Of a DNA stretch of 32,000 bases, positions 2,233-31,009 are shown one piece after another. Source of the stretch: Geotalea uraniireducens Rf4 (lineage in GTDB: Bacteria; Desulfobacterota; Desulfuromonadia; Geobacterales; Geobacteraceae); the NCBI RefSeq assembly GCF_000016745.1, contig NC_009483.1, positions 4,380,001 to 4,412,000 on the forward strand. The letters are read 5' to 3'. How positions within the stretch are numbered: position 1 is the stretch's first letter; the number at the start of each line of letters is the position of its first letter. The notes beneath the pieces were generated by a model, which saw nothing but the letters and a program-made list of their open reading frames with translations, was not told the origin of the DNA and did not search any database. The position numbers and the translations under genes were made by a program.

Positions 2233-2255
2233 TTCTACGTTCTACGTTCTACGTT
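2233..2255. repeat. Heptanucleotide tandem repeat (TTCTACG)x3 plus a partial unit. On the transcribed minus strand it reads CGTAGAA.
   Basis: Direct reading of 2233-2253 gives three perfect 7-nt units. The array lies in the 69-nt spacer between the histidine kinase stop (2280) and the response regulator start (2210). Confidence 0.9.
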
Positions 2256-2279
2256 TTAACATAGACCGCGAACAGCCTT

Positions 2280-3383
2280 TCACACGGGCAGCCTTACTGT
2301 GAAGGTCGTCCCCTTCCCCTTTTCACTGGCAACCTGAATGCTGCCGCCGTGACTTTCGACAATCTTCTGGGTGATGGCAAGACCAAGACCGGTTCCGTCC
2401 GGCTTGGTGGTAAAAAACGGCTCGAATATCCTGTTAAGCCTGTCAGGCTCAATGCCTTCGCCGGTATCGGCAAAAGAAAGCTCGACAACGGCAGGGCTCT
2501 CTTCCGCAGGCCCGGGGCATGAGGCGCTGACGGTCAGCTTCCCCCCGCGGCCGGTAGCCTGTAAACCGTTCATCAGCAGGTTAAGGAAGGCCTGGCGCAG
2601 TTTTTCCCGGTCTCCATGCACAGCCGGAAGCTCCGCCGGATTCAACTCTATCGAGACGCCGCGTGCCGCAGCCTCTGTACTTATCAGGGTAACGATCTCA
2701 TTCAGTTCAGCCATGATGTCGCAAGTTGCTCTCTCCACCTGAAGCGGTCTTGCCAGCCCGAGAAAATCCTCCACCACCCGGTTGAGGCGATCGGTTTCTT
2801 TCAGCAGTATCTCCAGAAATTCGTAGTTCGATTCTCCCGGGCGAAAGCTGTCTTTCAATATCTCGGCAGTTCCCTTTATGGAGCCGAGCGGGTTTCTTAT
2901 TTCGTGGGCCAGCACTGCGGAAAGCTCTCCCAGGACTGACAGCCTTTCCGCCCGCCGCAGCTGCTCTTCGATCTCGATGACGAGATCGGCCTGGCTCTGC
3001 AGCTTCTTGTAAGAGTCCTCAAGGCCTCTCGCGGTCTTGTGAAGCTCTTCCCTGCGCGCCACCTCTCGTTGGGAGAGGAGACCGGTGACTCCACCCACGA
3101 TGTTGTATAGCAGAATTTCAAGATATTTCTCAAGCTCCAGAGAAGGGTGTACCCCCCATTGGAAAAGGACGTGCGGCGCATACATGATACTCACAACAAT
3201 GGAAGAGACGAGGCCGCCTCGTAATCCGAACCAGAAGGCAGCAAGAATTATCGGTAAATAATAAAGCCGCTGAAAGATGTCGTGCAGCATCGGCAGATGC
3301 AGTGGCGTCAAATAATGCAGCAGGCTGATTCCCAGTATGAAAACGGCCGGCACCACCAAGCGAACTATGTTTGCACGTTTCAT
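2280..3383 (-). CDS. Membrane-bound sensor histidine kinase, partner of the sigma-54 response regulator
   Basis: The protein has H-box HEIRNPLGSI, N-box LNLLMNGLQA and G-boxes DTGEGI and GTGLGLAI. The N-terminal ~110 aa form about 4 hydrophobic helices with no large periplasmic domain. The start is uncertain. The ORF is open to 3419 (TTG), and I prefer the ATG at 3383 (MKRANIV...). Confidence 0.85.
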   Translation of the reverse strand: MKRANIVRLVVPAVFILGISLLHYLTPLHLPMLHDIFQRLYYLPIILAAFWFGLRGGLVSSIVVSIMYAPHVLFQWGVHPSLELEKYLEILLYNIVGGVTGLLSQREVARREELHKTARGLEDSYKKLQSQADLVIEIEEQLRRAERLSVLGELSAVLAHEIRNPLGSIKGTAEILKDSFRPGESNYEFLEILLKETDRLNRVVEDFLGLARPLQVERATCDIMAELNEIVTLISTEAAARGVSIELNPAELPAVHGDREKLRQAFLNLLMNGLQATGRGGKLTVSASCPGPAEESPAVVELSFADTGEGIEPDRLNRIFEPFFTTKPDGTGLGLAITQKIVESHGGSIQVASEKGKGTTFTVRLPV

Positions 3384-3479
3384 GGAGACACTATTAGTCG
3401 ATGCAGGAACTGAATGCAAGGATATTTTGTTGCGGGGAAAAGTCGGGGGGGCAGAAAAAACAGTGTATTGACGGCATAG

Positions 3480-3887: not shown

Positions 3888-4862
3888 CTATTTAACGCGA
3901 GTCACTACGTAATCAGCCAGATTAACAAGTGCGTATTTTTCCGGGGAATCCTCGAAAACATCCAGGTAAGCCTTGCAACGAGCGACATAGTCTTTTGCCA
4001 CCGTTACTGCATGGTCAATGCCGCCATATTGGTGAACCAGCTCAAAAACCGCCGCAAAATCATCTTCGTCCAGAACGTCTTTATCGACAACTTCGGCAAT
4101 CTTCTCTTTTTCAGCGGCAGTACAGTGCTGCAGTGTATGGATCAGCGGCAGAGTGATTTTTCCTTCTTCCAGGTCATGGCCGATGCTCTTGCCGAACTGC
4201 TCTTCACTGGCAACATAATCGAGCGTATCATCCACGAGTTGGAAGGCTATTCCCAGTTCCATGCCGAAATTCTGCAAGGCGACTTCACGCTCCGAGGAAG
4301 CCTTTCCAAGGATAGCCCCGGACTGGCATGCGGCTGATAGGAGTATGGCTGTCTTGGACTTCACAACCTCGATGTAACGTTCGGTAGTTACATCCAGATC
4401 GCTGGTGCAGACCAGTTGCAGCACTTCCCCTTCAGCAATTATCGTGGTAGCCCCGGAAAGAACCTTCAGAACATTGAGGTCGCCGTCTGCAACCATCAGA
4501 GAGAATGATTTGGAAAAAAGGAAGTCCCCCACAAGAACTGACGCTTCATTCCCCCACAAGGTATTGGCGGAAGCTAAACCTCGACGAAGGTTGGCATTGT
4601 CCACCACATCATCATGCAGAAGGGTAGCTGTGTGGATAAACTCGATCACGCTTGCCAACGGTACATGCCTGTCGCCATGATAGCCGCACAGCTTTGCCGA
4701 AAGGAGCAACAGCGCAGGACGGATTCTCTTGCCGCCGCTCGAAAGCACATATTCGCCAACCTTGCGAATCAGCGGGACGTCCGACTGAAGATCCTTTTTA
4801 AACTGTAACTCGACATTTTTCAGGTCTTCCCCGATGAGGGCAAGCGCTGCTTCCATTACCAA
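3888..4862 (-). CDS. ispB: Polyprenyl diphosphate synthase (octaprenyl-diphosphate synthase-like)
   Basis: 324 aa. It has both Asp-rich motifs of trans-prenyltransferases (LLHDDVVDN and FQLVDDTLDY). The length and layout are typical of IspB. The chain-length specificity is not determinable from sequence alone. Confidence 0.85.
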   Translation of the reverse strand: MVMEAALALIGEDLKNVELQFKKDLQSDVPLIRKVGEYVLSSGGKRIRPALLLLSAKLCGYHGDRHVPLASVIEFIHTATLLHDDVVDNANLRRGLASANTLWGNEASVLVGDFLFSKSFSLMVADGDLNVLKVLSGATTIIAEGEVLQLVCTSDLDVTTERYIEVVKSKTAILLSAACQSGAILGKASSEREVALQNFGMELGIAFQLVDDTLDYVASEEQFGKSIGHDLEEGKITLPLIHTLQHCTAAEKEKIAEVVDKDVLDEDDFAAVFELVHQYGGIDHAVTVAKDYVARCKAYLDVFEDSPEKYALVNLADYVVTRVK

Positions 4863-5059: not shown

Positions 5060-6022
5060 ATGTCGCCCCATATACTGATAGTGGATGACTCACCCTCATT
5101 CCAAAAGATGCTTTCCGGGCGTCTTGTAAAAAAAGGATACCGGGTCAGTTGTGCCTCTTCGGGCGAAGAGGCCATCAAGATATTTCAGACCGATGATTTC
5201 AACATGGTGCTGACAGATATTATTTTACCAGGCATGAGCGGGTTGAACATGCTCAAACTGGTTAAAGAGATGAAACCCGAAATGGACGTAGTCATTATCT
5301 CCAGTAACGCGTCCAGCTTTACCGCCATAAAGGCACTACGTCTGGGGGCCTATGACTACATTGTAAAACCCATAGACGACGAAGCAATTCTCTTTAACGT
5401 AGTGGCAAGGACCTTGGAGAAGCAGTTGCTGACCGTGGAAAATCGGCGCCTCATCAACGACCTTTCCGAGAAGAATCGGGCGCTTCAGGAAACTTTGGAC
5501 ATGATGAAGACTCTCAATAATGTCTGCGCCATCATTGCCTCAACAACCGATATAGGAGATATCCTGCGGAAACTTGTCGAGAGCGCAGTCGAGCAGCTGA
5601 AAGCAAAAAAGGGATATCTTTTGCTGCTGGACAAGGGGGGAACGAATTTCTCCATGAAAGTCTGCGTCGGCATTGACCATCACCTGGCGAAGGCTTTTAC
5701 CCTGCGGCACGACCAAGGGATATCGGGACTGGTGGCAGCCAACAACAAACCCTTGTGCATTGAATCAGACATTCCCGCCACCCTCACCCTTCGTCTTTTG
5801 GAAGAAGACGTATGCGGCGACCTTTTCAGCACCCCCGGCATCCTTTCGGTCCCGCTTCTTGTTAAGGATCGGGTCGTAGGGGTAGTAAACATATCCGGAC
5901 GCAGCGGGGGAAAGATGTTTACAGACACTGAAGTCGAATTCATCACAACTCTTGCCAATTTTGCAGCAATTGCCCTCGATAACGCCGGCACATTCTACCG
6001 GCTGAAGAAAAAAGGGCAATGA
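5060..6022 (+). CDS. Response regulator with a receiver domain and a C-terminal GAF domain
   Basis: From MSPHILIVDDSPSF...VLTDIILPGMSG...KP the sequence is a CheY-like receiver. The C-terminal ~150 aa are GAF-like (LSVPLLVKDRVVGVVNI). The ORF is open from 4982, but the receiver fold begins at the ATG at 5060. Confidence 0.8.
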   Translation: MSPHILIVDDSPSFQKMLSGRLVKKGYRVSCASSGEEAIKIFQTDDFNMVLTDIILPGMSGLNMLKLVKEMKPEMDVVIISSNASSFTAIKALRLGAYDYIVKPIDDEAILFNVVARTLEKQLLTVENRRLINDLSEKNRALQETLDMMKTLNNVCAIIASTTDIGDILRKLVESAVEQLKAKKGYLLLLDKGGTNFSMKVCVGIDHHLAKAFTLRHDQGISGLVAANNKPLCIESDIPATLTLRLLEEDVCGDLFSTPGILSVPLLVKDRVVGVVNISGRSGGKMFTDTEVEFITTLANFAAIALDNAGTFYRLKKKGQ

Positions 6023-10272: not shown

Positions 10273-10557
10273 GGCCTGTCCCTCCTGAAAGCGTTGTCTT
10301 TACCTTAGCTATTACAACAGCCGTACCAGCGGACGGATAAGCAGTAATTATCCTGTAACGACCTTAAATTGTTGGGCAAATTGGTGGCAACGGGCGAAAG
10401 TTGTCACCACGACTGCGGCAGCGCAACTGTTCTAAGATTGCACAGGAATCATTGTGGAATCAATAAATAGGCTGCTATATCAATACGTTGAGAATGAATT
10501 GATAAAAATGAACAGCGGTTCTTCTTTGCACAGGGAACCTTCAAGCACCTGCATTGC

Positions 10558-10585
10558 TTGAATATCACGGCAACTATGCTATTAT
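10558..10585 (+). promoter_or_regulatory. Candidate sigma-70 promoter for the oxidoreductase operon
   Basis: TTGAAT (10558-10563), a 16-nt spacer, then TATTAT (10580-10585). It lies 36 nt upstream of the ATG at 10622. Confidence 0.35.
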
Positions 10586-10621
10586 TAATCCTCATTTAAT
10601 GCTACACTGTCGGATGATCCC

Positions 10622-12154
10622 ATGCAAAGCGCACCCTTCATTCTTCCCGATGATGACCACAACAGAACCCTGGTTGACAACGTCCACCCCGGTAACTGGA
10701 CAAATCCTGCTCCTGCCGAGCGTTACAACCTTGTGGTTATCGGCGCAGGCACTGCCGGGCTCGTCACTGCCGCCGGCGCCGCCGGCCTCGGGGCAAAGGT
10801 AGCCCTCATCGAGCGACACCTCCTGGGAGGTGACTGCCTCAATTACGGCTGCGTCCCCTCCAAAGGAATCATCCGTGCCGCCCGGGCTATCCATGACGTG
10901 CGAACCGCCCATGAATTCGGTGTGGACGGGGGAGAAAGTCTCCCTATAGATTTTACGGCCGCCATGAAGCGGATGCGGCGAATAAGGAGCGAGATTAGTC
11001 CCCACGACTCGGCCCGGCGCTTCCGGGACGAGCTGGGGATCGACGTCTTCTTCGGCGCGGGAAGCTTTACCGGCTCCGACTCCGTCGAGGTCGGAGGAAA
11101 ACTGCTGCGCTTTAAAAAGGCGGCCATTTGCACCGGGGCGAGGGCTGCCGCCCCTCCCATTCCGGGGATCGTTGAAGCGGGCTACCTCACCAACGAAACG
11201 GTCTTCTCCCTCACCGAACTGCCGCAGAGGCTCGCCGTCATCGGCGGCGGCCCCATCGGCTGCGAGATGGCCCAGACCTTTGCCCGGCTGGGGAGCAAGG
11301 TGACCGTCCTGGAATACTCAGACCACCTCCTTTCCCGGGAAGACGCCGACGCTGCGGAAATCGTGCAGAATGCCCTGATGGATGACGGGGTTGAGCTCTG
11401 CCTGCGAGCCAGCATCCTGGCTGTCGCAAGACGCGACAACGACAAGATCATCACCGTCGAGCAGGATGGAAAAGGGATGGAGCTGGCGTTCGACGAGATC
11501 CTGGTCGGTATCGGCCGGGCTCCCAACATGGAGGGGCTGAATCTGGAGGCGGCAGGGGTTGCCTACGACCCTAAAGTGGGAGTAACGGTGAACGAGCGGC
11601 TCCAGAGCACCAACCCGCGGATCTTTGCCGCCGGCGACATCTGTTTCCCTTACAAGTTCACCCACTCCGCCGACGCCCTGGCACGCATCCTGATCGCCAA
11701 CGCGCTATTCATGGGACGGCAGAAGACATCTGCCCTCACCATCCCATGGTGCACTTATACCGAACCGGAGATCGCCCACGTGGGGATGTACGAGCGGGAG
11801 GCCCGGGAAAAGGGGATCGAGGTGACGACCCTGACCGTGCCACTCAGCGAGGTGGACCGGGCGCTCCTCGACGGAGAGTCGGAGGGGTTTGCCCGGGTGC
11901 ACCTGAGAAAGGGGACCGACCGGATTCTCGGCGCAACCATCGTCGCCCGCCATGCCGGCGAGATGATTAATGAGATGTCGCTGGCCATGACCGCCGGCCT
12001 CGGCCTCTCAGCTGTCGGCAAAACCATTCATCCCTACCCCACCCAGGCGGAGGCGATCAAGAAGCTCGCCGATGCCTATAACCGCACCCGGCTCACCCCA
12101 TTCGTGAAGAAAATCCTCAGCGTCTGGTTGAAATGGCAGAGAAAAACGCAATGA
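10622..12154 (+). CDS. FAD-dependent pyridine nucleotide-disulfide oxidoreductase (mercuric reductase / dihydrolipoamide dehydrogenase-like class I)
   Basis: 510 aa. It has the FAD-binding motif VVIGAGTAGL and the redox-active disulfide GGDCLNYGCVPSK. It also has an NAD-binding GGGPIGCE and a C-terminal dimerisation-domain HPYPT motif. There is no N-terminal HMA/MerA metal-binding domain. Confidence 0.85.
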   Translation: MQSAPFILPDDDHNRTLVDNVHPGNWTNPAPAERYNLVVIGAGTAGLVTAAGAAGLGAKVALIERHLLGGDCLNYGCVPSKGIIRAARAIHDVRTAHEFGVDGGESLPIDFTAAMKRMRRIRSEISPHDSARRFRDELGIDVFFGAGSFTGSDSVEVGGKLLRFKKAAICTGARAAAPPIPGIVEAGYLTNETVFSLTELPQRLAVIGGGPIGCEMAQTFARLGSKVTVLEYSDHLLSREDADAAEIVQNALMDDGVELCLRASILAVARRDNDKIITVEQDGKGMELAFDEILVGIGRAPNMEGLNLEAAGVAYDPKVGVTVNERLQSTNPRIFAAGDICFPYKFTHSADALARILIANALFMGRQKTSALTIPWCTYTEPEIAHVGMYEREAREKGIEVTTLTVPLSEVDRALLDGESEGFARVHLRKGTDRILGATIVARHAGEMINEMSLAMTAGLGLSAVGKTIHPYPTQAEAIKKLADAYNRTRLTPFVKKILSVWLKWQRKTQ

Positions 12155-12852
12155 ATCGGAAAAAACTCGTTATACTCACAATTGTCGCTGCACTCATCGC
12201 CCTTTTCTTCTACTTCGATCTGGGGAGATATCTGACTCTGGAATCATTAAAGGCCAACCGGCTGACCTTGGTGCGTTTCCACGATACACACAGAGTGGCC
12301 ACGGCAGGGATATTCATGGCGGTTTACATCGTGCAGACCGCCCTCTCCCTTCCCGGCGCAGCCATACTGTCGCTCGCCGCAGGCGCCGTATTCGGAGCGG
12401 CCATGGGGACCATCTATTCCAACATAGCAGCCACCCTCGGCGCCACCCTCGCCTTCCTGGTGGCCAGATATCTTTTCCGCAATTCGATCCAGAGCAAATT
12501 CGGGGTCAGGCTCAGCAAATTGAACACCGAGCTGGAGCAAAGGGGGCTCAACTATCTGCTTTTCCTCCGCCTGGTGCCGGTCTTCCCCTTCTTCCTCATC
12601 AACCTGGGGGCCGGATTGACAAAACTGCCGCTGCGGACTTTTTTCTTCGGCACCATGTTCGGCATTATCCCCGGTGGTTTCGTCTATTGCAACGCCGGGG
12701 CCAGCCTGGCATCCATCAACAGCATGAGGGAAATCGCCTCCCCGCGGGTGCTCGGATCCTTTGCCCTGCTGGGCCTCTTTGCCCTGGTGCCGGTGTTTTA
12801 CCAGAAACTGAAAGCAAGAAAACGGGAATCGGGGATCGGGGATCAGCAATAA
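12151..12852 (+). CDS. TVP38/TMEM64 (DedA-related) family inner-membrane protein
   Basis: A multi-pass membrane protein with the family-typical PGAAILSLAAGAVFG and FLRLVPVFPF segments. The ATG at 12151 overlaps the upstream TGA as ATGA. An alternative start lies at 12133. Confidence 0.8.
   Translation: MNRKKLVILTIVAALIALFFYFDLGRYLTLESLKANRLTLVRFHDTHRVATAGIFMAVYIVQTALSLPGAAILSLAAGAVFGAAMGTIYSNIAATLGATLAFLVARYLFRNSIQSKFGVRLSKLNTELEQRGLNYLLFLRLVPVFPFFLINLGAGLTKLPLRTFFFGTMFGIIPGGFVYCNAGASLASINSMREIASPRVLGSFALLGLFALVPVFYQKLKARKRESGIGDQQ
12824..12844. repeat. Heptanucleotide tandem repeat GGGAATC-GGGGATC-GGGGATC inside the 3' end of the TVP38 gene
   Basis: Direct reading. It encodes the C-terminal ...ESGIGDQQ tail and ends 6 nt before the TAA stop. 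Confidence 0.8.
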
Positions 12853-12864
12853 GATGTGGAACCA

Positions 12865-12892
12865 CCAGTTCCCAGTTCCCAGTTCCCAGTTC
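12865..12892. repeat. Heptanucleotide tandem repeat (CCAGTTC)x4
   Basis: Direct reading shows four perfect units. The array starts 12 nt after the TVP38 stop and ends 18 nt before the preferred start of the radical SAM gene. Confidence 0.92.
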
Positions 12893-12910
12893 ACTATTCA
12901 CGGAGTCAAG

Positions 12911-19345: not shown

Positions 19346-19381
19346 ATGAATCCAGGAAAGGTGTAAAGTGAACGGTTAACA

Positions 19382-19906: not shown

Positions 19907-19993
19907 TTTTTTCTTCCTCCCTTATCTATGCAGCCAGAGCTTTATTTAATATGCAGAATTACCTGTGAATTCTGTTGCCATTCTTCATTTTTT

Positions 19994-20056
19994 CAACCAT
20001 CAACCATCAACCATCAACCATCAACCATCAACCATCAACCATCAACCATCAACCGC
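19994..20056. repeat. Heptanucleotide tandem repeat (CAACCAT)x8 plus one imperfect unit, which reads (ATGGTTG)n on the transcribed minus strand
   Basis: Direct reading shows eight perfect units at 19994-20049, then CAACCGC. The array begins 5 nt after the TAG stop of the upstream gene (20061) and lies ~90 nt upstream of the rplS start. Confidence 0.95.
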
Positions 20057-20060
20057 ATTG

Positions 20061-20642: not shown

Positions 20643-21375
20643 TGCCGGCTACCCTTTGCAATTCCTCAAGATATTCCCTGTCGCTTGCAGAGAGATGCGC
20701 ATCCGTCAGCAGATCCGGCCTCGATGCGGCGGTGCGGCCCAGAGACTGTCGGCGCCGCCACTTGGCGATCTCCTGATGGTTGCCGGATAAAAGCACGCTC
20801 GGCACGCCCAGTCCCCGAAATTCCGCCGGCCGCGTATACTGGGGGTATTCGAGAAGACCATCGGCAAATGAATCATTCACGGCAGACTCGTCACTCCCCA
20901 AAACACCGGGAACAAAACGGGAAACAGCGTCAACGAGCACCATGGCCGCCATCTCGCCGCCGGTCAGGACAAAGTCGCCGATGGATATCTCGTCGTCAAC
21001 GAACAGTTCCCTGACCCGTTCATCCACCCCCTCGTACCGGCCGCAGATGATAATCAGCGCTTCTTCACGAGCCAGCTCTTCCGCCACAGCATGGTTGAAG
21101 GAACGCCCCCGCGGGGTGGTAAGGATGACACGCGCCCTGGGACTGCCTACCTTGGCATGTTCAATACATGCCGCAAGGGGCTCCACTTTCATCACCATCC
21201 CTGCGCCGCCACCGTAAGGGTAATCGTCCGTTACGCTGTGCCGATCAAAGGCAAAATCCCGAATGTTATGGAGTTTTACCTCAATAAGTCCCTTCTCGGC
21301 AGCGCGCTTGAGAATGCTTTCCGTTAACGGACCATCAAACATGGCGGGAAAGAGCGTCAAAATATCGAATTTCAT
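20632..21375 (-). CDS. trmD: tRNA (guanine37-N1)-methyltransferase
   Basis: 247 aa. It begins [17 protein letters not shown] and contains [10 protein letters not shown] and LTGGE motifs. Confidence 0.95.
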
Positions 21376-21896
21376 AGATCGAGCAGCCCCTCGGGCAGGC
21401 TGACTGTCATACGTTTTGCATCCGAATCCACATCCAGCACAACATCCGCCAGGGCAGGAATGAGTATCTCCCGTCCGCTCCCCTGGACCACATAAACGTC
21501 ATTACTACCGGTCACGATAATATCCACCAGTTCTCCGAGAGACTCCCCCTCTTCGGTTACCACCTGCAACCCCAAAAGGTCGCACCAGTAATACTCGTCT
21601 TCGGGAAGTTCCGGCAACTGCTCGCGCAGGGCGTACAATTCTCGCCCCACCAGATGAAGCACCTGATTTATATTATCAAACGCCTTAAGGGTAATAATGA
21701 CCTTTTTGCCGTGGGCCTTGGAAGCCGCAACTGCAAAGATTTCCATCTCCCCGCCAGGCTTTTTCACCATAATCGATCGCAATGTCAGCAGGCTATCCAC
21801 GTCGCCGGAAAAGGGGGTGATACGCAATTGCCCCCTGACCCCGTGTGTTGCCGAGACCTTACCGATCAGAACTGTTTCGTTACCGCTGGACATCAC
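21372..21896 (-). CDS. rimM: 16S rRNA processing protein RimM
   Basis: 174 aa. It has the [16 protein letters not shown]-terminal PRC-barrel family signature. Both ends overlap neighbouring genes by 4 nt. Confidence 0.9.
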
Positions 21897-22123
21897 TCTA
21901 CTATCTTCAGGACCGCCTTCTTGTTATCCTTTGTTGAAACAGCGTTGAGCAGGGTACGAATAGCCTTCGCCGTCCGCCCCTCTTTGCCGATAATCCTGCC
22001 CATGTCTTCTTTCGCCACAGTCAGCTTGATAACGGTAGTCTCTTCCTCCATCTCCTCGGTTGCTCTTACCTGATTGGGGTCGTCAACAAGTGCTTTAGCG
22101 ATGGTTTCTACGAGCTCTTTCAT
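21893..22123 (-). CDS. KH-domain RNA-binding protein (YlqC/UPF0109)
   Basis: 76 aa. It has the GRIIGKEGRTAKAIRTLL KH motif and the conserved position between rpsP and rimM. Confidence 0.9.
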   Translation of the reverse strand: MKELVETIAKALVDDPNQVRATEEMEEETTVIKLTVAKEDMGRIIGKEGRTAKAIRTLLNAVSTKDNKKAVLKIVE

Positions 22124-22177
22124 GTCGCTGTCCTCTGTAAGTGTAGAATGTCCGGCGTGCCGGCGGAAAAAACAGGA

Positions 22178-22444
22178 TTATGCAAGCTTGGAAACGAATT
22201 TTTCCCAGATACCGGCTTTTTTGAGGATCTGCTTGACGGTATCGGTAGGCTGTGCGCCCTTGCCAAGCCATTCAAGAGTCTTTGCCTCTTCCAGCTTGAA
22301 GACGGCAGGGTTCTGGTTCGGGTCATAGGTTCCGACATTTTCAATGAAACGGCCGTCCCGCTTGCAACGTTCGTCTGCAACCACAACCTGATAGAATGGT
22401 TTTCTCTTTGCGCCGGCGCGTGCCAGCCTGATTTTTGTTGCCAT
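22178..22444 (-). CDS. rpsP: 30S ribosomal protein S16
   Basis: 88 aa, beginning [24 protein letters not shown]... This is a canonical S16. Confidence 0.95.
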
Positions 22445-22494
22445 TTCTTCCTCCTGGTATTATCACGGCCTCTGCCGCAACTTTGTGTTTAGTA

Positions 22495-23844
22495 TTAAAA
22501 GGGAAACATCCCTTTTCCCATTCCCTTCATAAGCCCTTTGGGGCCGAGCTTCTGCAACTGCTTGACCACTTTTTGCGCCTCGGTGAAGCGCTTGAGGAGC
22601 TGGTTGACCTCCTGCACGGAAGTACCACTCCCCTTGGCAATGCGTAACCGCCGGCTGCCGTTGATGATGGAGTGGTTTGCCCGCTCCGCGCGGGTCATGG
22701 AATCGATGATCGCCTCGATCCGCTTCAACTCCCTCTCGCTCGGCTGGGCGCCCTGCATCTGCTTCATCATCTTGCCCATACCGGGGATCATCCCCATGAT
22801 CGACTCGAGGGAGCCCATCTTCTTCAATTGTTGGAGCTGGCCCTTGAAATCATCCAGATCAAAATTGCTTTTCTTCAGCTTCTTCTGGAGACGCTCGGCC
22901 TCCGTTGCATCGAAGGTGGACTGGGCCTTCTCAATAAGGGTCAGCACATCCCCCATACCGAGAATGCGCGACACGAGACGGTCCGCATGGAACACCTCGA
23001 GCGCGTCCAGCTTTTCCCCTAGCCCGACGAATTTTACCGGCTTGCCGCTGACCGCCTTGATGGAAAGGGCCGCGCCCCCCTTAGCATCGCCGTCCAGCTT
23101 GGTAAGAACAACGCCCGTGATGCCGAGACGCTCGTCAAAGCCGGCCGCGACGTTGACCGCTTCCTGGCCGGTCATGGCATCCGCAACGAAGAGGATTTCG
23201 CGGGGATCGACCGCATCACGGATATGGACCAGTTCATCCATCAGATATTCATCGATCTGATGACGGCCTGCTGTATCGAAGATCACCGTGTCGAAGCCGG
23301 ACAGCTCTGCGTACTTCAAGGCATTGCGACAGATATCGAGCGGCTTCTGGTCCGCCTGAGAATCATACACCTCGATCGACAGCTGCCGCCCAAGGGTTTT
23401 CAGCTGCTCGATAGCCGCCGGACGGTAGACATCGGCAGGAACCATCAGCGGTTTTCTCCGCTGCGCCTTCAGGTACCTGGCCAGCTTGCCGCAGGTAGTG
23501 GTCTTGCCGGCGCCCTGAAGGCCCACCATCATAATGGCAACCGGCGGCTTGGCCGCCAGATCGAGGCTGTTATCCTCACCACCCCCCATGAGACTGACCA
23601 GCTCGTCATGGACAATCTTGACCACCTGCTGGCCCGGCGAAAGGCTTTGCAAAACCTGGGTGCCGACCGCTTTTTCCCGGACACGCTCGACAAAATCCTT
23701 GACGACCTTGAAATTCACGTCCGCCTCAAGGAGCGCCAGACGCACTTCACGCAGGGCATCCTTGATATTCTCCTCGGTCATCACACCATGGCCGCGGAGC
23801 TTCTTAAAGACCAGATCAAGTTTATCGGAAAGGCTTTCGAACAT
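22495..23844 (-). CDS. ffh: Signal recognition particle protein Ffh
   Basis: 449 aa. The SRP54 N/G domain has GLQGAGKTTTCGKLA, DTAGR and TKLDGD motifs. A Met-rich M domain follows (MGMIPGMGKMMKQMQG). Confidence 0.95.
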   Translation of the reverse strand: MFESLSDKLDLVFKKLRGHGVMTEENIKDALREVRLALLEADVNFKVVKDFVERVREKAVGTQVLQSLSPGQQVVKIVHDELVSLMGGGEDNSLDLAAKPPVAIMMVGLQGAGKTTTCGKLARYLKAQRRKPLMVPADVYRPAAIEQLKTLGRQLSIEVYDSQADQKPLDICRNALKYAELSGFDTVIFDTAGRHQIDEYLMDELVHIRDAVDPREILFVADAMTGQEAVNVAAGFDERLGITGVVLTKLDGDAKGGAALSIKAVSGKPVKFVGLGEKLDALEVFHADRLVSRILGMGDVLTLIEKAQSTFDATEAERLQKKLKKSNFDLDDFKGQLQQLKKMGSLESIMGMIPGMGKMMKQMQGAQPSERELKRIEAIIDSMTRAERANHSIINGSRRLRIAKGSGTSVQEVNQLLKRFTEAQKVVKQLQKLGPKGLMKGMGKGMFPF

Positions 23845-23929
23845 CTAAACTCTGCTGTAATTTCAAACTGTTATGTGACGATTTTGTCACGCCATGCAAA
23901 ACGCGCAATTTACCACTTGTAAAGGGGTA

Positions 23930-23959
23930 ACTTTAGTAGAAAGTCCAGCTTTTTGTCAA
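23930..23959 (-). promoter_or_regulatory. Candidate sigma-70 promoter upstream of ffh
   Basis: The minus strand reads TTGACA (23959-23954), an 18-nt spacer, then TAAAGT (23935-23930). Confidence 0.35.
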
Positions 23960-23985
23960 GATAAAATTCACTTATGCATTTCTAT

Positions 23986-24567
23986 TCAGACCCGAATCAC
24001 GGAACGCGCCTGCAACATGCTTTCGGCAATGGTGAACATGTTGGTCACCGTGCCGGCAGCCAGCTTGTCCTTACGATGAAAGAAATCGAGACAGACCCCG
24101 CAGGAAAAAATCTCCACCCCCCGATTTCCAAGCTTTTCCAAGGCTTCGATCACTTCGGAACCTTCGGTGGTCAAAAGCACGCCGGTATTGACAAACAGCA
24201 TCAGGTCGGGAACGTCTGTCACATCGAGCAGGGTTATGATGAAATTTTTCATCAGGAGTCGTCCCAACTCCTCAGGGCCATCACCCAGCCGGTCAGCGGC
24301 GACCAGCATGACAGTCTTACCCCCTATGCTCACGACACCTTCCTTCGCTTGCTGCTGCGTCCCTGAAATGACCAGAGAGAACGCCCCGCCGACGACCGTT
24401 TCCTCGACTTCAAGCCCACGGTTTGCGGCAAAGCGGCCGACATTTTCCCGTGGCGCCCCGTCATCGAGCAATACATTCAGCGGCTCTCCCGGATTCTCTT
24501 CCAAAGCCCGTTTCACCATCACAACCGGTTGCGGACAAGCCATATTTCTGCAATCAATGGTTTTCAA
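23986..24567 (-). CDS. yedF: YedF-like protein (TusA/SirA-type sulfur/selenium carrier domain fused to a DsrE-like domain)
   Basis: 193 aa. The N-terminus has the TusA motif IDCRNMACPQPVVMVKRAL. The C-terminal ~110 aa domain has the length and architecture of selenium-metabolism protein YedF. Confidence 0.7.
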   Translation of the reverse strand: MKTIDCRNMACPQPVVMVKRALEENPGEPLNVLLDDGAPRENVGRFAANRGLEVEETVVGGAFSLVISGTQQQAKEGVVSIGGKTVMLVAADRLGDGPEELGRLLMKNFIITLLDVTDVPDLMLFVNTGVLLTTEGSEVIEALEKLGNRGVEIFSCGVCLDFFHRKDKLAAGTVTNMFTIAESMLQARSVIRV

Positions 24568-24594
24568 CCTTTCCTCCCAATCAGTCTCACAGGG

Positions 24595-24855
24595 TCAACA
24601 ACCCTCCACTTTTTCGTATCGATCATTCCGCTTCACATACAATTCAGCCGGCTGAAGTCCTTCCTCCGCCAGCACCATCTCCACCGAATCCTTAATATCG
24701 GTGCCATACCTGATGGCAAGGCCGCAATCGGATTGTAACGCCCGTGGCACCGGAATGAGAAGAATTCCCAACCTCCGCCCCTTCAATATCTTTTCAGCTT
24801 TCATCACCCGATGGATGGAGTTGAAAACAGCCACATAATCACCGTCTCGGACCAA
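24595..24855 (-). CDS. DUF3343-like small protein (putative S/Se carrier-associated)
   Basis: 86 aa with an apparent TTG start. The pattern AVFNSIHRVMKAEKILKGRRLGILLIPVPRALQSDCGLAIRY matches my recollection of DUF3343. It sits immediately upstream of yedF, which is a common pairing. Confidence 0.55.
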   Translation of the reverse strand: MVRDGDYVAVFNSIHRVMKAEKILKGRRLGILLIPVPRALQSDCGLAIRYGTDIKDSVEMVLAEEGLQPAELYVKRNDRYEKVEGC

Positions 24856-24933
24856 TATCGTACCCTTTCACGAAGTAAACCGATTGCTGCACAATTTTAC
24901 ACAGGGACGTCAACTTTTCAAGCAATAAGCGCA

Positions 24934-24962
24934 TTGACAAAAACATGCTAAATTCATACTAT
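24934..24962 (+). promoter_or_regulatory. Candidate sigma-70 promoter
   Basis: TTGACA (24934-24939), a 17-nt spacer, then TACTAT (24957-24962). It lies just upstream of a GAGAGGTAGAGA SD and the ATG at 24981. Confidence 0.45.
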
Positions 24963-24980
24963 ACCGCCGAGAGGTAGAGA

Positions 24981-25238
24981 ATGCATCCTGTTTTATTATT
25001 CTTAGGGATTATGGCGCTGGCCTGCATCATTAACCTGCCGTTCGGCTATCTGCGCCAGAATTACGAGAAGTTCACCTTCGGCTGGTATTTTTATGTCCAC
25101 ATCTCGATACCGATCATTATCTACCTGCGGATAAAGTCGGGATTCAGCTGGAAGCTTATCCCACTGACGCTGGGGAGCGCAGTTGCCGGTCAATTGATCG
25201 GCGGAAAACTTAACAAGAAAAGGAAATCCCTTGGCTGA
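24981..25238 (+). CDS. Small integral membrane protein (85 aa), function unknown
   Basis: Three hydrophobic segments and a basic C-terminal tail (KLNKKRKSLG). A good promoter and SD lie upstream. Confidence 0.55.
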   Translation: MHPVLLFLGIMALACIINLPFGYLRQNYEKFTFGWYFYVHISIPIIIYLRIKSGFSWKLIPLTLGSAVAGQLIGGKLNKKRKSLG

Positions 25239-25710
25239 AAAACGCCCGAAGATGCCCCGGCCGGCAGCCGTTGCCGACCTCCTTGCCGAAATCTTTCAGG
25301 GCAAACCGGTGGGGAAACGGCTGAATGAGGGAAAGATCTGGCTTGTCTGGGAGATAGCCGTTGGAGAGCAGATAGCGGCCCGCGCGAGACCGACCGGTTT
25401 CCGTGACGGTGTTCTGACCGTGACTGTGGACAGCGCCCCCTGGATGCAGCAGTTGAGCTACCTGAAAAAGCAGATCATCGCCAAGCTGAACAAGAGGCTC
25501 GGCGAAGAACTGGTAAAAGATATTTTTCTCCGAGCTGGAAGTAGGGAAGAGTCTGTCCCACAGCCAACTGCACTGAGAAAAAAAGCAAGACCCCTCTCCA
25601 GCGAAGAAAAGGAAAAAATTGCCGAATACTCTTCGGCAATAGCCGACTCTGAACTACGCGGTGCATTTGCCAGCCTGGTGGCGCGACATAAGGCCGACCG
25701 GGAAGAGTAA
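25231..25710 (+). CDS. DUF721/DciA-like protein
   Basis: About 150 aa. The core VGEQIAARARPTGFRDGVLTVTVDSAPWMQQLSYLKKQIIAKLNKRLG is typical of DUF721. The start is either the TTG at 25231 or the ATG at 25252. Confidence 0.65.
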   Translation: MAEKRPKMPRPAAVADLLAEIFQGKPVGKRLNEGKIWLVWEIAVGEQIAARARPTGFRDGVLTVTVDSAPWMQQLSYLKKQIIAKLNKRLGEELVKDIFLRAGSREESVPQPTALRKKARPLSSEEKEKIAEYSSAIADSELRGAFASLVARHKADREE

Positions 25711-25749
25711 ATCGCGTGGCTTAACTGAACTTACGTTGCAGAGTAAATC

Positions 25750-26458
25750 CTAATTGAACAGGTTATATTTCAATATGCATTTTATTGCAGAAAGGCCGTC
25801 TTTCCACCCGATTTTTTTCCCTTCTTTGTAGGTCCTTCCTGAATAGGAAATGCCGACTTCGTATATTCTCACATCAAGTTTGGCCACCTTTGCGGTAAAC
25901 TCGGGCTCAAAGCCGAAACGTTTTTCTTCCAGCCTCAATTCGCGCAAAACATCCTTAATGAAAACCTTGTAGCATGATTCCATGTCCGTAAGATTTAAAT
26001 TGGTAAACATGTTTGACAAGAAGGTTAAGAACTTGTTTCCCATCATATGCCAAAAAAAACACCACTCGGTGGGGAGCCCCACCCACAAAACGTGAACCGT
26101 AAACTACATCAGCCTTATCATCAAAAATAGGCTGTAAAAGCTGAGAATAATCCCGTGGGTCATATTCCAGGTCAGCGTCTTGAATTATAATTATTTCGCC
26201 ATTGACCATGCTGAAACCGGTCTGAAGGGCGGCACCCTTGCCGAGATTTTTGTCATGAAAAATCAACTGCATGTTTTCCACGCTTAACTTCTTTAACAAA
26301 TCCCGTGTGCCGTCAGTGGAACAATCATCAACAATGATTATCTCCTTGTTAAAAGGAACCTCGGAGACTCTCTGAATAATCTCTAGAAGGGTATTGCATT
26401 CGTTATAAACCGGGATCACTATGGATATCTTAGTATTTTCATCATATCTTTTATACAT
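25750..26458 (-). pseudogene. Family-2 glycosyltransferase (polyprenol-phosphate sugar transferase-like) interrupted by a +1 frameshift in a T8 run
   Basis: Track ORFs 25955-26488 and 25750-26088 are the N- and C-terminal halves of one GT2. The first carries ISIVIPVYNE...VDDCSTDGT...QDADLEYDP. The second carries [29 protein letters not shown]. Both halves are collinear with the intact paralog at 27144-27860. The frames switch at A8/T8 (26052-26059). Confidence 0.8.
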
Positions 26459-26541
26459 ATTGAACCATCCAGACAATATTAAATACAATATAAGAAATAC
26501 CGCTGCACAAATGAAAGAATGTTCCTACGTACAAAATTGAT

Positions 26542-26928
26542 TCAAGTCATTATAGCCGCAATAATTGCGGTCCTTTTTTCAAACATCTCAAGTGCCAGCA
26601 TATAAACCGCAGGCACAAGCAATAAAAACATCATGTGTGAAACTATACCGGCAACAGACAATAAATCTTTGACATTGAAGAGATAAGAAATAACAGCTAT
26701 GAAAATAGATTGGAGAGGCAGAAACATGCTTGCCTGCCAGCCCAGTTCTTTTGTCTGCAACAGGTTTCTCGCGATCTGGAGATAAACTGTCCCGTCGGTA
26801 GAGAGTCCGGGTTGTTGAGAATAAAAGTAGAGGATGATAACAGACAAGATGATTGAAAAGAGTATTCCGTAATGTTCTCGAAAAAAATATTGAATACATT
26901 CAGTGGTATTTTGATTATTGGCCTTCAT
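26542..26928 (-). pseudogene. N-terminal fragment (128 aa) of an ArnT/PMT-type (GT39/GT83-like) membrane glycosyltransferase
   Basis: Only about 4 TM helices are present. The N-terminal loop pattern DGTVYLQIARNLLQ parallels [15 protein letters not shown] in the full-length 27897-29525 protein. The ORF stops after 128 aa, against more than 500 aa for the family. Confidence 0.4.
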
Positions 26929-27143
26929 ATAACCTTCTTTTATGAATTGGAATATTGGGAAAGGGATTTTTTTCTGAGACTGAAAAAAATTTCAGAAACT
27001 TCATTTTCCCCACCACACATATTGAAAATTAATCCGATGTATTCTTTTGAGATAACCGACCAGGCCGTTATTCCCTTCGGCTCCTGCCAGCGGAGCTTTT
27101 TCCCGCCGGGAGAAAGTTAGTGATGAGATTGCCCCGGATATCG

Positions 27144-27860
27144 TCAAAATTTTCTCCTGCTCCGACCGCCTGACCTGAAAAGATTATATTTGAGAATGCA
27201 GCGTAAAGCCGAAAACCCGTCCATCCAGCCAATCTTCTTTCCTTCTTCATATGTTCTGCCGTAATAGGATATGCCGACTTCGAAGATTCTGCATTTCGTC
27301 CTGGCCAATTTTGCGGTGATTTCGGGTTCAAAGCCGAACCTGTTTTCCTCTATCTCAATCGACTGGATAATCTCTCGCCGGAATGCTTTATAGCAGGTCT
27401 CCATATCCGTCAAGTTAAGGTTGGTGAAAGTATTGGAAAGCAGGGTCAGAATACCATTTCCCACCCTGTGCCAGAAATAGACCACCCGATGCGCGCCTTC
27501 ACCAATAAAACGGGAGCCGAAAACGACATCCGCCTTTCCATGCAGAATCGGATCGATTATCTTTGTGTACTCATTCGGATCATATTCCAAGTCTGCATCT
27601 TGAATTATAACGATATCGCCGGTTGCCGCCGCTATTCCGGTCCGGAGTGCAGCGCCTTTCCCCTGGTTAACAGCATGATAGAGGACTTTATCCACCAGCG
27701 ACGCAACACTGTTTCTCAGTACTTCTCTTGTGCCGTCAGTAGAACAGTCATCGACAACGATAATTTCCTTGTGAGGATAAGGAGAAGCTTTAACTGCCTC
27801 TACAATAGTCTTGATAGTGTCCAGTTCGTTATAACACGGAATAATAATTGATAATTGCAT
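27144..27860 (-). CDS. Family-2 glycosyltransferase (polyprenol-phosphate sugar transferase-like), intact
   Basis: 238 aa. It has [20 protein letters not shown] and QDADLEYDP (a DxD-type motif) plus the GT2 fold. Confidence 0.85.
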
Positions 27861-27896
27861 AAGATACCTTAATGGGGCTTGATTGGAGGGACAGTT

Positions 27897-29525
27897 CTAT
27901 TTCAGCAGGTAGCGATAGATAACGAACCCGCCAAGATCCGGAAAATAATTTCCGCTTAACACCTCTATCCCGTAAGCCGGGTTGACGGGCTTGCCTTCCA
28001 GCGGGCCGAGAAGTTCAATCAACTCCTGCCTCCGCGATAAGACTGAATTTGTATCGATCAACAGGAAGCGGGCTCCGTTTTTCCTGCCATAGTCAACAAC
28101 TTCTTTGACCCCTCCTTTGGGGAGAGTAATAACTGGACGATCAGCAAAATAGCCGACAAGCCCCCAACGGGTCATGATCACGTCGTTTTTTTGCGAATTA
28201 TTTTTTATGATTTCACCGGCGCCCTTGTAAATTTTTTCCGTTAACATTACCTGCCTTACCAATTCCGGTGACTGATAATTTGCGTCGGCCTGCTTATAGA
28301 ACCCAAAAGAAACATATGACACGACCAACAATAGCAAGACAGACAATCCGGCCTCATATACTGCGGATTTCATGACAGGCCTGAACTTTTCAACAACTCT
28401 CCAGACCCCTTTAGCTGCAGTTTCGAAAAACGCAATAAAGCAGACAAACATAACCGTGAAGATCGGATAGATGTAGGAATGAGTTTTGGGTATGGTTACT
28501 ATATAATTCGGCGAAGTTACAGCCAATAGTATTAACATATAGATAAAATTCTTTGCCCTTCTGCCCCAGAGAAGAATTACCATTCCCGCCCAGGACACGA
28601 GATGCATCCATATGGGAAAAGTAGAATAATATACCCGTGAGAAAGCCTTGATATTTGCCCATACTGCATCAATAAAGACAGGCACCGTCCCATAGTAATC
28701 TTTCCAGACTGATCCGCCAGTCCCGGTTTTTTTCAATTCTCCCTTGGCATTCAGCGTCAGTACGACATCCGCAGTTTTAACATGTGATTCCGTCAGGGGT
28801 GACAGTGCCCATTGGCCAATATGGTTATGCAGAGAAATCAGATAGGGACCAGCCAGAAGAAGAAACCCAAGCAGGAAAACTAATGGAGCAGCAACCTTTT
28901 TTCTATTGAAATTACCTTTTCCTATTAAAGGCAACAAGCACACCAGGAAGCCGCAAACAAAGCCGACAAATCCTTCCGGTCTTGCCAGGTAGGAAAGGGC
29001 AAATAATATTCCCGCTCCGCATAACCAGCCTTTACCATTCTTTTCCACTCCCTGGTGGAGAAGCACAATTCCCCACAAAAGGTAACAGAGATAACTCGAT
29101 TGGCTCAGGGGGGAAGTGGTAAAAATCAAGCTGAAGGAGAAAAATGCCCAGAGCAGACAGACTGCCAGGGCGGGGATACGGGAAAGGTAGATCCGTGCCA
29201 GGATAAAGAGGGGGAGTACTGTCAGTGCATCCATGAAAATCGAGGCAAGGCGCGCGGCATATTCCAGATCAACCGGCAGTAGGGCAAAAAGGGCAATGAC
29301 TAATGGATAGCCGGGGGGCCTGCCAGCGGTATCCAAAGGCTGCAGCTGGAAAATATTTTTTGCCACTACCATATATCCTACGGCGTCCTGCTCATGGATC
29401 ATCATCGGGTAGCGGTAGGTCACCAGGAAATGATATCTGAGGGCAAATGCCAGCATACAGGCAAAAATCGGCAAACAATATTCCCACTTCTTCAGCAGCA
29501 TACCGAACCTCACGTTTCTAATCAT
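27897..29525 (-). CDS. ArnT/PMT-family (GT39/GT83-like) polytopic membrane glycosyltransferase with a C-terminal periplasmic domain
   Basis: About 540 aa with at least 10 predicted TM helices and then a soluble ~150 aa C-terminal domain. The ATG at 29525 overlaps the upstream GT2 stop as ATGA. The ORF is also open to 29564. Confidence 0.7.
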
Positions 29526-30268
29526 TTTTCTTTTCCAAATATCCGGAAGCACATCAAACCCCACCGCTGGAGCCTGAATTGCACAGCAGTTTTAAGGACG
29601 CCGAGGCCATAGATGACGCTCCGCCGGAAATTGATGGAGGAGGCGTCTTCGAAATATTTGGTCGGACAGCTCACCTCCCCGATCCGGTAGCCGAACCAGA
29701 CAAGCTGGGCCAGCATCTGGTTGTCGAAGACGAAATCATCGGAGTTTCTGTCGAGCGGGAGTTGCTCCAGGATTTCCCGGGAAAAGGCACGATAGCCCGT
29801 GTGGTATTCAGACAGTTTGTGCCCCAGCATGAGATTCTCAAAAAAAGTCAGGAAGCGGTTGGCAACGTACTTGTAGAACGGCATCCCCCCCTTCAACGCG
29901 CCGACCCCCAGGATGCGGGAGGCGAGCACCGCGTCGAATTCGCTGTAGGCAATCATGGACACCATGGCGGTGATCAGCTTGGGGGTATACTGGTAGTCGG
30001 GGTGGAGCATGACCACGATGTCCGCGCCCAGGTCGAGGGCCGTTTTGTAGCAGGTCTTCTGGTTGCCGCCGTATCCCTTGTTCTCCTCATGAACGATGGT
30101 CCGAATCCCGAGACGCCGGGCCACCTAGGCCGTGTCGTCCCGACTGGCGTCATCAACCAGTATCACGTCATCGACAAACTCGAAGGGGATCTCCTTATAA
30201 GTAATTTCAAGTGTTTTTGCCGCGTTATAGGCCGGCAAAACAACTGCTATCCTCTTGTTGTTCAGCAT
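29522..30268 (-). pseudogene. Family-2 glycosyltransferase interrupted by a single in-frame TAG
   Basis: Track ORFs 30125-30322 (…RIAVVLPAYN…VDDASRDDTA) and 29522-30124 ([21 protein letters not shown]…) are in the same frame. They are separated only by the TAG at 30125-30127. Joined, they form a normal GT2. Confidence 0.75.
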
Positions 30269-30995
30269 CGTTTCCCCAACATATGTGTTGCATTTCCGAA
30301 CTGTATCCGCCATCTCCGGCATAGACGATGAGGGGCGGCAGTACCGATAAATCCCCCCTCCGCCCCTTGACCAACTCTACGAGAAACATTCCCGCCCCAG
30401 AGATGTCGTTGCCGTGCACCATACGAAGCCGCAACGGGGCGAGCTTCAGCAGAGCTGCCTCGGCAAAAAGCTCCACCAATCGGGACGGATGATAGATGAA
30501 GCAGATCCTCCCCCCCGGTTTGACCAGGTATTTCGCCGCCGTCAGGAAATCGGTGAGGCATGCGGTAGATTCGTGCCGTGCCTTGTCCCGTCCGGCCCTG
30601 GGGCTCACCCGACCGGTACCGGCTCTGCGGTAGGGGGGATTCGAAACGACCAGGTCAAAGGATGATACGGGAAACACCCCCTTCAAGGAGGTGATATCCG
30701 CGGCCAGAATGGAAATCCTGTCGCCGAGGCCGTTGATACTGACGTTGCGCAAGGCCAAATCCGCCAGCAATGCCTGGAATTCCACCCCGGTAACGGTGAC
30801 ATCCTCCGCCTCCCTGGCCAGGATCAGGGGGATGATGCCGCAGCCGCTCCCGAGGTCAATGGCCCGTTCGCCGGTCCTGATGGCGGCAAAGTCGCACAAA
30901 AGAAGCGGGTCGAGGGAGAATCGGTAGCCGTCCCGCGGCTGGCCAATGCTCAGCCGGTGTCTGCGCAACTCGTCGACGGTTTCTTCACCTTTCAC
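30225..30995 (-). CDS. N6-adenine-type SAM-dependent methyltransferase (TrmN6/YfiC-like)
   Basis: 256 aa. It has the SAM-binding motif IDLGSGCGIIPL and the catalytic NPPY motif (VVSNPPYR). The GTG start at 30995 lies inside a heptad array and overlaps the upstream TGA. Confidence 0.65.
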   Translation of the reverse strand: MKGEETVDELRRHRLSIGQPRDGYRFSLDPLLLCDFAAIRTGERAIDLGSGCGIIPLILAREAEDVTVTGVEFQALLADLALRNVSINGLGDRISILAADITSLKGVFPVSSFDLVVSNPPYRRAGTGRVSPRAGRDKARHESTACLTDFLTAAKYLVKPGGRICFIYHPSRLVELFAEAALLKLAPLRLRMVHGNDISGAGMFLVELVKGRRGDLSVLPPLIVYAGDGGYSSEMQHICWGNDAEQQEDSSCFAGL

Positions 30996-31009
30996 CTTTC
31001 ACCTTTCAC
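30984..31009. repeat. Heptanucleotide tandem repeat (TTCACCT)x3 plus a partial unit, which reads (GTGAAAG)n on the transcribed minus strand
   Basis: Direct reading. The upstream gene's TGA (30992-30994) and the methyltransferase GTG (30993-30995) are both inside the array. Confidence 0.9.

Follow-up and report, generated by a model that had tools for sequence, protein, structure and literature searches.

Tandem arrays of seven-base-pair units were reportedly first described by Mazel et al. in 1990, as the short tandemly repeated repetitive (STRR) sequences of cyanobacteria. We describe here seven such arrays, located at gene junctions in a stretch of 32,000 nucleotides of Geotalea uraniireducens Rf4, a member of the Geobacteraceae (NC_009483.1, positions 4,380,001 to 4,412,000; this whole stretch is called the window hereafter). 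In filamentous cyanobacteria the STRR have units of 7 bp and can often form hairpins in the spacers of co-transcribed genes, hupS and hupL for instance, and roles in transcript stability or translational coupling have been proposed for them (PMC2670836). According to two later papers that summarize the work of Mrazek, Guo and Shah in 2007 (PMC4679880, PMC4692102), heptanucleotides are the most abundant long simple-sequence repeats (LSSR, units of 5-11 nt) in most genomes, coding regions favour multiples of three, and the preference for 7 nt was suggested to reflect the DNA segment held by the polymerase under a slippage hypothesis; by these summaries, a preference for period 7 with free sequence is already published. 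The position near stop codons is published as well: Rehm et al. 2015 (PMC4692102) reported arrays of the heptamers GGGAATC and GGGGA(C/T)T in the gaps separating open reading frames (ORFs) that are aligned, in Xanthomonas and Nostoc, with the G-rich strand as sense strand within 50 bp of the stop codon or overlapping it, the C-rich strand as sense strand upstream of starts, about 70 inverted pairs per genome, and lengths that differ widely between related species at shared junctions. In G. metallireducens, Aklujkar et al. 2009 (PMC2700814) listed the Gmet_H4## elements, i.e., four tandem GGGACCG heptanucleotides in 49 copies, together with paired opposite-strand tandem 7-9-nt "global regulator sites", and MacGregor 2015 (PMC4679880) described TAACTGA direct repeats in marine Beggiatoaceae, some Cyanobacteria and Bacteroidetes.

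The arrays of the window belong to this known class, here in Geobacteraceae and with a nearly exclusive period of 7. They share with STRR the 7-bp tandem units in intergenic operon spacers, often capable of forming hairpins, whereas STRR come in a few defined genome-wide families of cyanobacteria and the units here are specific to their junctions in a Geobacteraceae host. With the LSSR of Mrazek 2007, as summarized, they have in common 7-nt units of free sequence, period 7 as the commonest one, the proposed slippage, an occurrence in free-living bacteria with large genomes and the keeping of non-triplet units out of coding sequence; they are longer than chance allows, over-represented at period 7 and polymorphic by whole units between genomes, as detailed below. 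Their stop/start polarity, opposed pairs and turnover at orthologous junctions have no counterpart in those summaries. The unit of the Xanthomonas and Nostoc repeats (GGGNATC or GGGGA(C/T)T) is found in the window at position 12823 only, and not in the other six arrays; in contrast to that single unit family and the emphasis put there on G-quadruplexes, the units here are diverse and mostly unable to form such a structure, since 12823 has three G-tracts instead of four and most of the other units are devoid of GGG. The elements of G. metallireducens come from the same bacterial family and are likewise intergenic or intragenic heptanucleotide arrays, often in opposed pairs at variable distance, and one of our comparison loci, L005, carries AGGGACC arrays of the Gmet_H4## type. 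Unlike the window units, which are single-copy and would be missed by such a search, those elements are multicopy consensus families found by BLAST and read as regulator sites. The TAACTGA repeats are also short intergenic heptamer arrays near translation signals in operons, ribosomal-protein ones included, but have one fixed unit and stand mostly just upstream of start codons. We found no publication that catalogues variable-unit heptamer arrays in Geobacteraceae as such.

It seems reasonable to argue that the window arrays are heptanucleotide simple-sequence repeats, to be grouped with cyanobacterial STRR and with the GGGAATC repeats of Xanthomonas, and that they grow by slippage; we consider this explanation probable. 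A short local sequence at a junction would be duplicated and would then gain or lose whole 7-nt units, the likeliest route being slipped-strand mispairing in replication. Old arrays would decay by point mutation while a fresh expansion would re-homogenise the array around a variant unit, and for this reason different units would come to stand at one junction in different genera. As a 7-nt step breaks the reading frame, arrays would survive only where they are harmless, i.e., in intergenic spacers, in the few codons that close a gene, or in a stop/start overlap; at two window sites (18685 and 30984) the stop, the start and, 7 nt apart from unit to unit, a ribosome-binding site are all supplied by the array itself, however many copies it has. 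About 40% of the arrays of relatives, plus 16442-16509 in the window, are opposed pairs that could fold across the spacer, and a further filter would keep the mRNA strand rich in G where the array is close to the stop and rich in C where it is close to the start.

Excess of period 7 and turnover of units in relatives

The comparison set comprises 161 sequences (1.86 Mb), namely the window, 80 loci (1.2 Mb) and 80 metagenome loci, designated below by L numbers and all lying around one syntenic region. The synteny of this region is kept across Geobacteraceae and into Desulfobacterales, and the best match of a genome scan with its 193-aa gene was a Geobacter metagenome-assembled genome with 89% amino-acid identity. 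Tandem Repeats Finder (TRF) detected 113 arrays of period 7 over the 161 sequences against 6.4 in third-order Markov shuffles; other periods were less numerous (63 observed vs 3.6 shuffled for period 9, 38 vs 8.0 for period 8 and 23 vs 5.6 for period 6). When perfect arrays of at least three copies are counted in the first 80 loci, there are 22 of period 7 and only 1, 2, 0 and 1 of periods 5, 6, 8 and 9. Although 84% of the DNA is coding, 106 of the 113 heptamer arrays (94%) lie outside gene bodies, while the period-6 arrays are almost all inside genes. At Geobacteraceae-like loci the non-coding arrays include 36 of period 7, and no other period exceeds 4. Within long spacers between co-oriented genes (at least 90 nt), 14 of 35 arrays begin between -30 and +7 nt of the stop codon where a uniform distribution predicts 5.7 (P = 7e-4), so the earlier claim of a non-random position next to stops holds. 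It is worthy to note that in Desulfobacterales-type loci the arrays also stand in opposed orientation with periods of 8-10, combine constant core positions with variable bases and recur across genomes (L056 10561-10677, L117 4413-4525 and 5985-6110, L106 18262-18338, L037 12483-12719). Their units (GTTTnATTG/AACCAATnn, ATGGAATA/TTCCAAyA, TGGAGTGA/CACTCCAn and CACTTTAGnn) look more like a family of motifs than do the free-unit heptamers of Geobacteraceae.

In the window itself, whose array density is about 3.5 times that of the average relative, TRF and an exact-repeat census yielded five perfect period-7 arrays of 3.3-8.9 copies (TRF scores 37-124) and two imperfect ones, at 12823-12844 and in the opposed arms 16442-16463 / 16472-16509, the arrays listed by TRF for this period, apart from a marginal match at 27844, being 2233, 12823, 12865, 16475, 18685, 19993 and 30984. 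The seven arrays of the first-pass annotation are thus all recovered, with coordinates right within 1 nt of rotation. In second-order Markov shuffles of the window the expectation is 0.0 for each period from 4 to 15, 7 included. The exact census returned no perfect array of at least three copies for periods 5, 6 and 8-13 in the window, and no period other than 7 reaches 2.8 copies anywhere in it; at the lowest threshold, TRF adds three period-9 matches (2.0-2.3 copies) and one 15-mer, all at chance level, and the absence of arrays of period 5, 6, 8 or 9 noted at first reading essentially stands. So does their absence from the low-GC island, where the sole match of period 7 is an imperfect ATAATTG of 2.5 copies at 27844, within the start of a glycosyltransferase gene and again at chance level. 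This island (window ~25900-30100, 38-46% GC) encodes glycosyltransferases, its gene content differs in relatives, and two short GT2-like ORFs in it, 25955-26488 (177 aa) and 29522-30124 (200 aa), look truncated. The arrays are as follows, the unit being given as read on the sense strand unless stated otherwise.

2233-2255, minus strand: (AACGTAG)x3.3, TTCTACG on the plus strand, in the 69-nt spacer between a histidine-kinase gene and a sigma-54 response-regulator gene.
12823-12844, plus strand: (CGGGRAT)x3.1, G-rich, of GGGNATC type, coding for RESGIGD at the C-terminal end of the TVP38/VTT-family gene 12133-12852.
12865-12892, plus strand: (CCAGTTC)x4, C-rich, between the TVP38 stop and a radical-SAM gene.
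16472-16509, minus strand: 5' arm of an opposed hairpin, G-rich, CGAGGnC units, 5 nt past the nadE stop (16515-16517).
16442-16463, minus strand: 3' arm of the same hairpin, C-rich, CCTCGTT CTTCGAT CCTCGGT C, followed by TCCTTTTT.
18685-18712, minus strand: (GTGAGGA)x4, TCCTCAC on the plus strand, at the rnhB/yraN stop-start junction.
19993-20054, minus strand: (GGTTGAT)x8.9, TCAACCA on the plus strand, between a PF09936 methyltransferase-like gene (193 aa, 20061-20642) and rplS.
30984-31009, minus strand: (GTGAAAG)x3.7, TTCACCT on the plus strand, at the junction of ORF 30992-31957 and methyltransferase gene 30225-30995.

The first-pass annotation stated that these units share no consensus. 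Six different, unrelated units are indeed found among the seven arrays; the exception is that 18685 and 30984 both read GTGArrr on the sense strand.

The fate of the arrays at orthologous junctions gives a view of their turnover. The rnhB-yraN junction carries orthologous arrays in about 20 relatives, where the GTGAGGA of the window is replaced by GTGAAAG (L005, L007), TGAAGGA (L018), GTGAATC (L023) or GTGAAGA (L063), and degenerate arrays are found in L001, L002, L004 and L009. At the nadE-rsmI junction five genomes have five unrelated units, mostly as opposed pairs, while the 30984 junction has orthologous GGTGAAA arrays in L005 and L007. A comparison of copy number at orthologous junctions, which had been proposed as a check, gave differences of 7, 14 and 21 nt: L024 is 21 nt shorter than L023 and L025 with flanking genes 95-98% identical, and between L005 and L007 the differences amount to 14 nt and 7 nt. 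At 19993 the window has nine GGTTGAT copies where its nearest relative, L001, has a single GGTTGAG; judging from the two sequences, this is the signature of a slipped-strand expansion of local sequence. With different units at the same junction between genera and lengths that change in whole-unit steps, the earlier suggestion of a process rather than a binding motif is upheld. Nothing in the data shows either the templated addition or the mechanistic tie to translation or transcription ends that had been put forward as candidates for that process.

In three relatives (L008, L009 and L063) the nadE-rsmI spacer contains a shared element of ~110 nt in place of heptamer arrays, e.g., L009 ~13950-14075. 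It has complementary ends, GAAACGCGCC...GCGCGTTTC, and in L063 a CCTCACC array accompanies it; the element may be mobile and small, or may encode a structured RNA.

Junctions and reading frame

The gene context of each array was drawn from ORF translations, from six-frame views of each junction and from independent gene calls on two Logan contigs, L081 and L082. The array at 2233 sits 24 nt past the kinase stop (2280-2282) and 22 nt ahead of the response-regulator start (2210), and a GAACnTA array related to its unit is present in L008 and L040. Further along, 12823 reads CGGGAAT CGGGGAT CGGGGAT C within the end of the TVP38 gene, and 12865 begins 12 nt past the stop of that gene and ends 18 nt ahead of the radical-SAM start at 12911 (L082 gene call). 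The rsmI start (16395) is 46 nt downstream of the 16442-16463 arm. As for 19993, it begins 6 nt past the stop of the PF09936 gene and ends 86 nt ahead of the rplS start (19906). At 18685 the third unit of the array holds the TGA with which rnhB ends (18695-18697) as well as the GTG, overlapping it, with which yraN begins (18696-18698), and the preceding unit gives an AGGAG Shine-Dalgarno-like motif ~6-7 nt upstream of this GTG. Likewise, ORF 30992-31957 ends on a TGA of the 30984 array, the methyltransferase gene begins on a GTG that overlaps this TGA, and an AAGG motif is found 7 nt upstream. In both arrays every unit contains GTG, TGA and a purine-rich Shine-Dalgarno-like motif, the latter falling ~7 nt before the start. 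The first reading had placed every array within about 15 nt of a stop codon, which is right for six of them and not for 2233. Upstream of rplS, the last GGTTGAT unit and an A-run (19969-19996, minus strand) form a -35-like TTGAAA located 16 nt from a CAGAAT -10-like hexamer; 9 of 12 positions match, the arrangement is not conserved in L001, and it is probably due to chance. A strong intrinsic-terminator-like hairpin of 12 pairs (8 GC) followed by a T-run is found at 19390-19416 (minus strand), between rplS and rnhB and thus within the conserved cluster of genes.

Because 7 is not a multiple of three, the gain or loss of one unit had been expected to rotate the reading frame, and frame-shifting spacers were among the roles considered at first. 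Our simulations led us to reject this idea: when the array is made longer or shorter by one unit, the proteins on either side stay the same for five of the six direct arrays (2233, 12865, 18685, 19993 and 30984), because these are either fully intergenic or have TGA and GTG in every unit. Among the window arrays, only 12823 affects a protein when its number of units changes: the loss of one CGGGGAT would fuse the TVP38 ORF (12133-12852) in frame to the radical-SAM ORF to give 575 aa, and the gain of one unit would yield a 271-aa TVP38 product with a new tail. Phase-variable contingency loci, i.e., simple-sequence repeats in ORFs or promoters that switch genes on and off in host-adapted pathogens, are also slippage-prone and also have unit lengths that are not multiples of three; we nevertheless rejected this assignment, since a one-unit change switches nothing at five of the six direct arrays.

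Operon context is equally unremarkable. The first-pass annotation saw a co-oriented gene after every array and took the arrays to be a feature of operons; the former is true for each of them and merely follows the base rate, as 79% of adjacent gene pairs are co-oriented. With 80% of arrays between co-oriented genes against 79% of all gene pairs, an enrichment in operons was rejected.

Strand polarity, pairing and competing explanations

The arrays obey a strand rule. Stop-proximal arrays have more G than C on the sense strand in 40 of 41 cases and start-proximal arrays more C than G in 19 of 20; once orthologous junctions are collapsed, the stop-proximal polarity holds in 17/17 clusters (p = 1.5e-5). 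It is also true of arrays that have no complementary partner and at convergent gene ends. All window junctions conform to it: the stop-adjacent array has more G than C, and where a second array or arm follows (12865; 16442-16463), it has more C than G. We ruled out that the polarity is inherited from local composition, since array-free spacers (n=464) have no such polarity and a G-C skew of ~0 after stops. Besides, a reverse-complement partner is found no more than 400 nt away for 41 of 106 arrays (39%), and for 1 in the reversed-probe control. In both the strand rule and the frequent inverted pairs the arrays resemble the repeats described by Rehm 2015. In L056, two opposite-strand GGTATTG arrays (4676-4721 and 5198-5219) ~500 nt apart each adjoin the stop of one of two convergent genes, and when read on the sense strand of the gene concerned, both are G-rich.

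Pairing and polarity bear above all on the rival that survives best, in which the arrays are selected elements of RNA structure or translation and slippage is merely the source of their variation. Opposed arrays would form hairpins that serve as intercistronic terminators, attenuators or mRNA stabilisers or that couple translation from stop to start, and G-rich arrays past stops would insulate untranslated RNA against Rho. We regard this rival as unlikely, though several points speak for it. The high proportion of partnered arrays, the first arm adjoining the stop and the second lying near the start, the polarity at 17/17 junctions and its lack in array-free spacers, arrays retained from genus to genus at the same junctions, the stop, Shine-Dalgarno motif and start supplied at 18685 and 30984, and the roles in transcript stability or translational coupling suggested in the STRR literature (PMC2670836) would all be expected of selected elements. 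The RNA hairpin predicted at 16442-16509 (-37.7 kcal/mol, z = -2.9) has a UUUUU run ~7 nt past its main stem; a consensus terminator scan, however, does not list it. The other window sites are less suggestive, with weak predicted pairing of 12823 and 12865 as a hairpin pair (z = -1.6) and a self-fold of the 19993 region that is not significant (z = -0.55), and Rfam 15 gave no match at gathering score over the whole window. Selection on the hairpins at the RNA level, sought through sense-strand G-U wobbles, was rejected: among 21 opposed pairs folded, the sense strand was more stable in 10 and the antisense strand in 11, with 66 vs 78 G-U pairs, and this symmetry therefore leaves no RNA-specific signal. 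Moreover, 61% of arrays are without a partner, units and copy numbers change freely, and the G-rich polarity is also present past the final gene where two genes converge, a setting in which Rho polarity ought not to play a part.

A further proposal, which we hold to be quite unlikely, is that sequence-free short-period arrays have a dedicated and conserved role in operon expression, or that repeat generation is physically coupled to gene ends, so that the arrays would make up a general and unrecognised class of intercistronic elements. Such arrays may shield untranslated intercistronic RNA from Rho or pass terminating ribosomes to the next start. The polarity is seen with unrelated units, with unpartnered arrays and across phyla, and could be read in favour of a dedicated role.

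It is less probable still that the arrays are multimeric sites for a protein or RNA reading a loose heptamer code, whether a cold-shock, S1 or CsrA-like RNA binder or a global DNA-binding regulator. Common cores do exist (GTGAr at rnhB-yraN and other junctions, GGGAnnC or GGAAT types), the period 8-10 arrays of Desulfobacterales have a constant core with variable bases, arrays are kept at orthologous junctions, and similar proposals were made for G. metallireducens (PMC2700814) and for the Beggiatoa TAACTGA repeats (PMC4679880). Six unrelated units among the seven window arrays and five at nadE-rsmI in five genomes are, however, difficult to reconcile with a common reader. A tandem spacing of 7 bp, besides, does not bring the sites to the same side of the helix.

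We find it very improbable that the arrays were left behind by small mobile elements inserted at junctions, or form their ends, be it elements like miniature inverted-repeat transposable elements (MITE), repetitive extragenic palindromes (REP) or foldback elements, with inverted termini built of short tandem repeats. Opposed arrays do flank spacers of 60-270 nt, and the nadE-rsmI spacer of L008, L009 and L063 holds the different, palindrome-ended ~110-nt element. Against it, the units differ at every locus compared, leaving no family with common ends, neither target-site duplications nor a transposase were seen, most arrays are single, and the 19993 array grew from local sequence, from the one copy seen in L001 to the nine of the window; a REP/MITE multicopy family was rejected on these grounds.

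The window arrays are real. The Logan contigs L081 and L082 belong to an independent assembly, built from one sequencing run of the same sample. They match the window at 100% identity over 20027-30002 (L081) and 10306-19465 (L082), and L082 contains four array sites unchanged (12823, 12865, 16442-16509 and 18685), 2233 and 30984 lying outside both contigs. An assembly artefact, to which the break of L081 in the 62-nt 19993 array might point, is thus a negligible prospect in view of these four sites and of the dozens of unrelated genomes that have homologous arrays at the same junctions. The check that had been suggested against artefacts, which also turned to the orthologous junctions of relatives, therefore came out in favour of the arrays. 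L081 stops four units into the 19993 array, arrays longer than the assembler k-mer causing contigs to break, so that the figure of 8.9 copies comes from the window assembly alone.

Several points weigh against growth by slippage as the whole explanation. By itself, slippage accounts neither for the preference for 7 nor for the polarity of G at stops and C at starts, and it leaves the stop-adjoining position of arrays in long spacers unexplained. That arrays have lasted at one junction from family to family could point to a selected site rather than to mere tolerance. Length variation was compared between genomes; exact-protein look-ups matched the same sample only, and the best relative of the metagenome scan has 74% amino-acid identity. 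Finally, the census covers the one syntenic region, and genes of relatives were called by a crude in-house caller based on codon usage, which reproduces the independent L081/L082 calls. We still favour slippage as the mechanism that would generate the arrays, and the polymerase may be what makes 7 the preferred period. Hairpin stabilisation, translational coupling or the avoidance of C-rich, Rho-loading RNA past the stop may be functions of the arrays.

Consequences for annotation and for the family

For annotators of Geobacteraceae and Desulfobacterales, 7-nt arrays are to be expected at gene junctions, and they are able to supply the true stop and the GTG start of a gene, as for yraN and the methyltransferase gene. 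They are also a hazard when the longest ORF is called over them. In the window, arrays without antisense stops lengthen the spurious antisense ORFs 18234-18746 (plus strand, 170 aa) and 19433-20092 (plus strand, 219 aa), which in a longest-ORF gene call displace the real yraN and rplS. Arrays of this kind break short-read assemblies, as in L081, and could serve as strain-typing markers.

Rather than revealing a new system, these observations extend what was published for a single G-rich unit in Xanthomonas and Nostoc, namely the strand rule at stops and starts, to arbitrary units in another phylum. To this they add that arrays last at the same junction for long periods while the unit turns over, and that those of this window are frame-neutral in their great majority. 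As a result, the question that arises for the Geobacteraceae is a sharper and testable one, i.e., why the unit is 7 nt long and why it is G-rich past stop codons.

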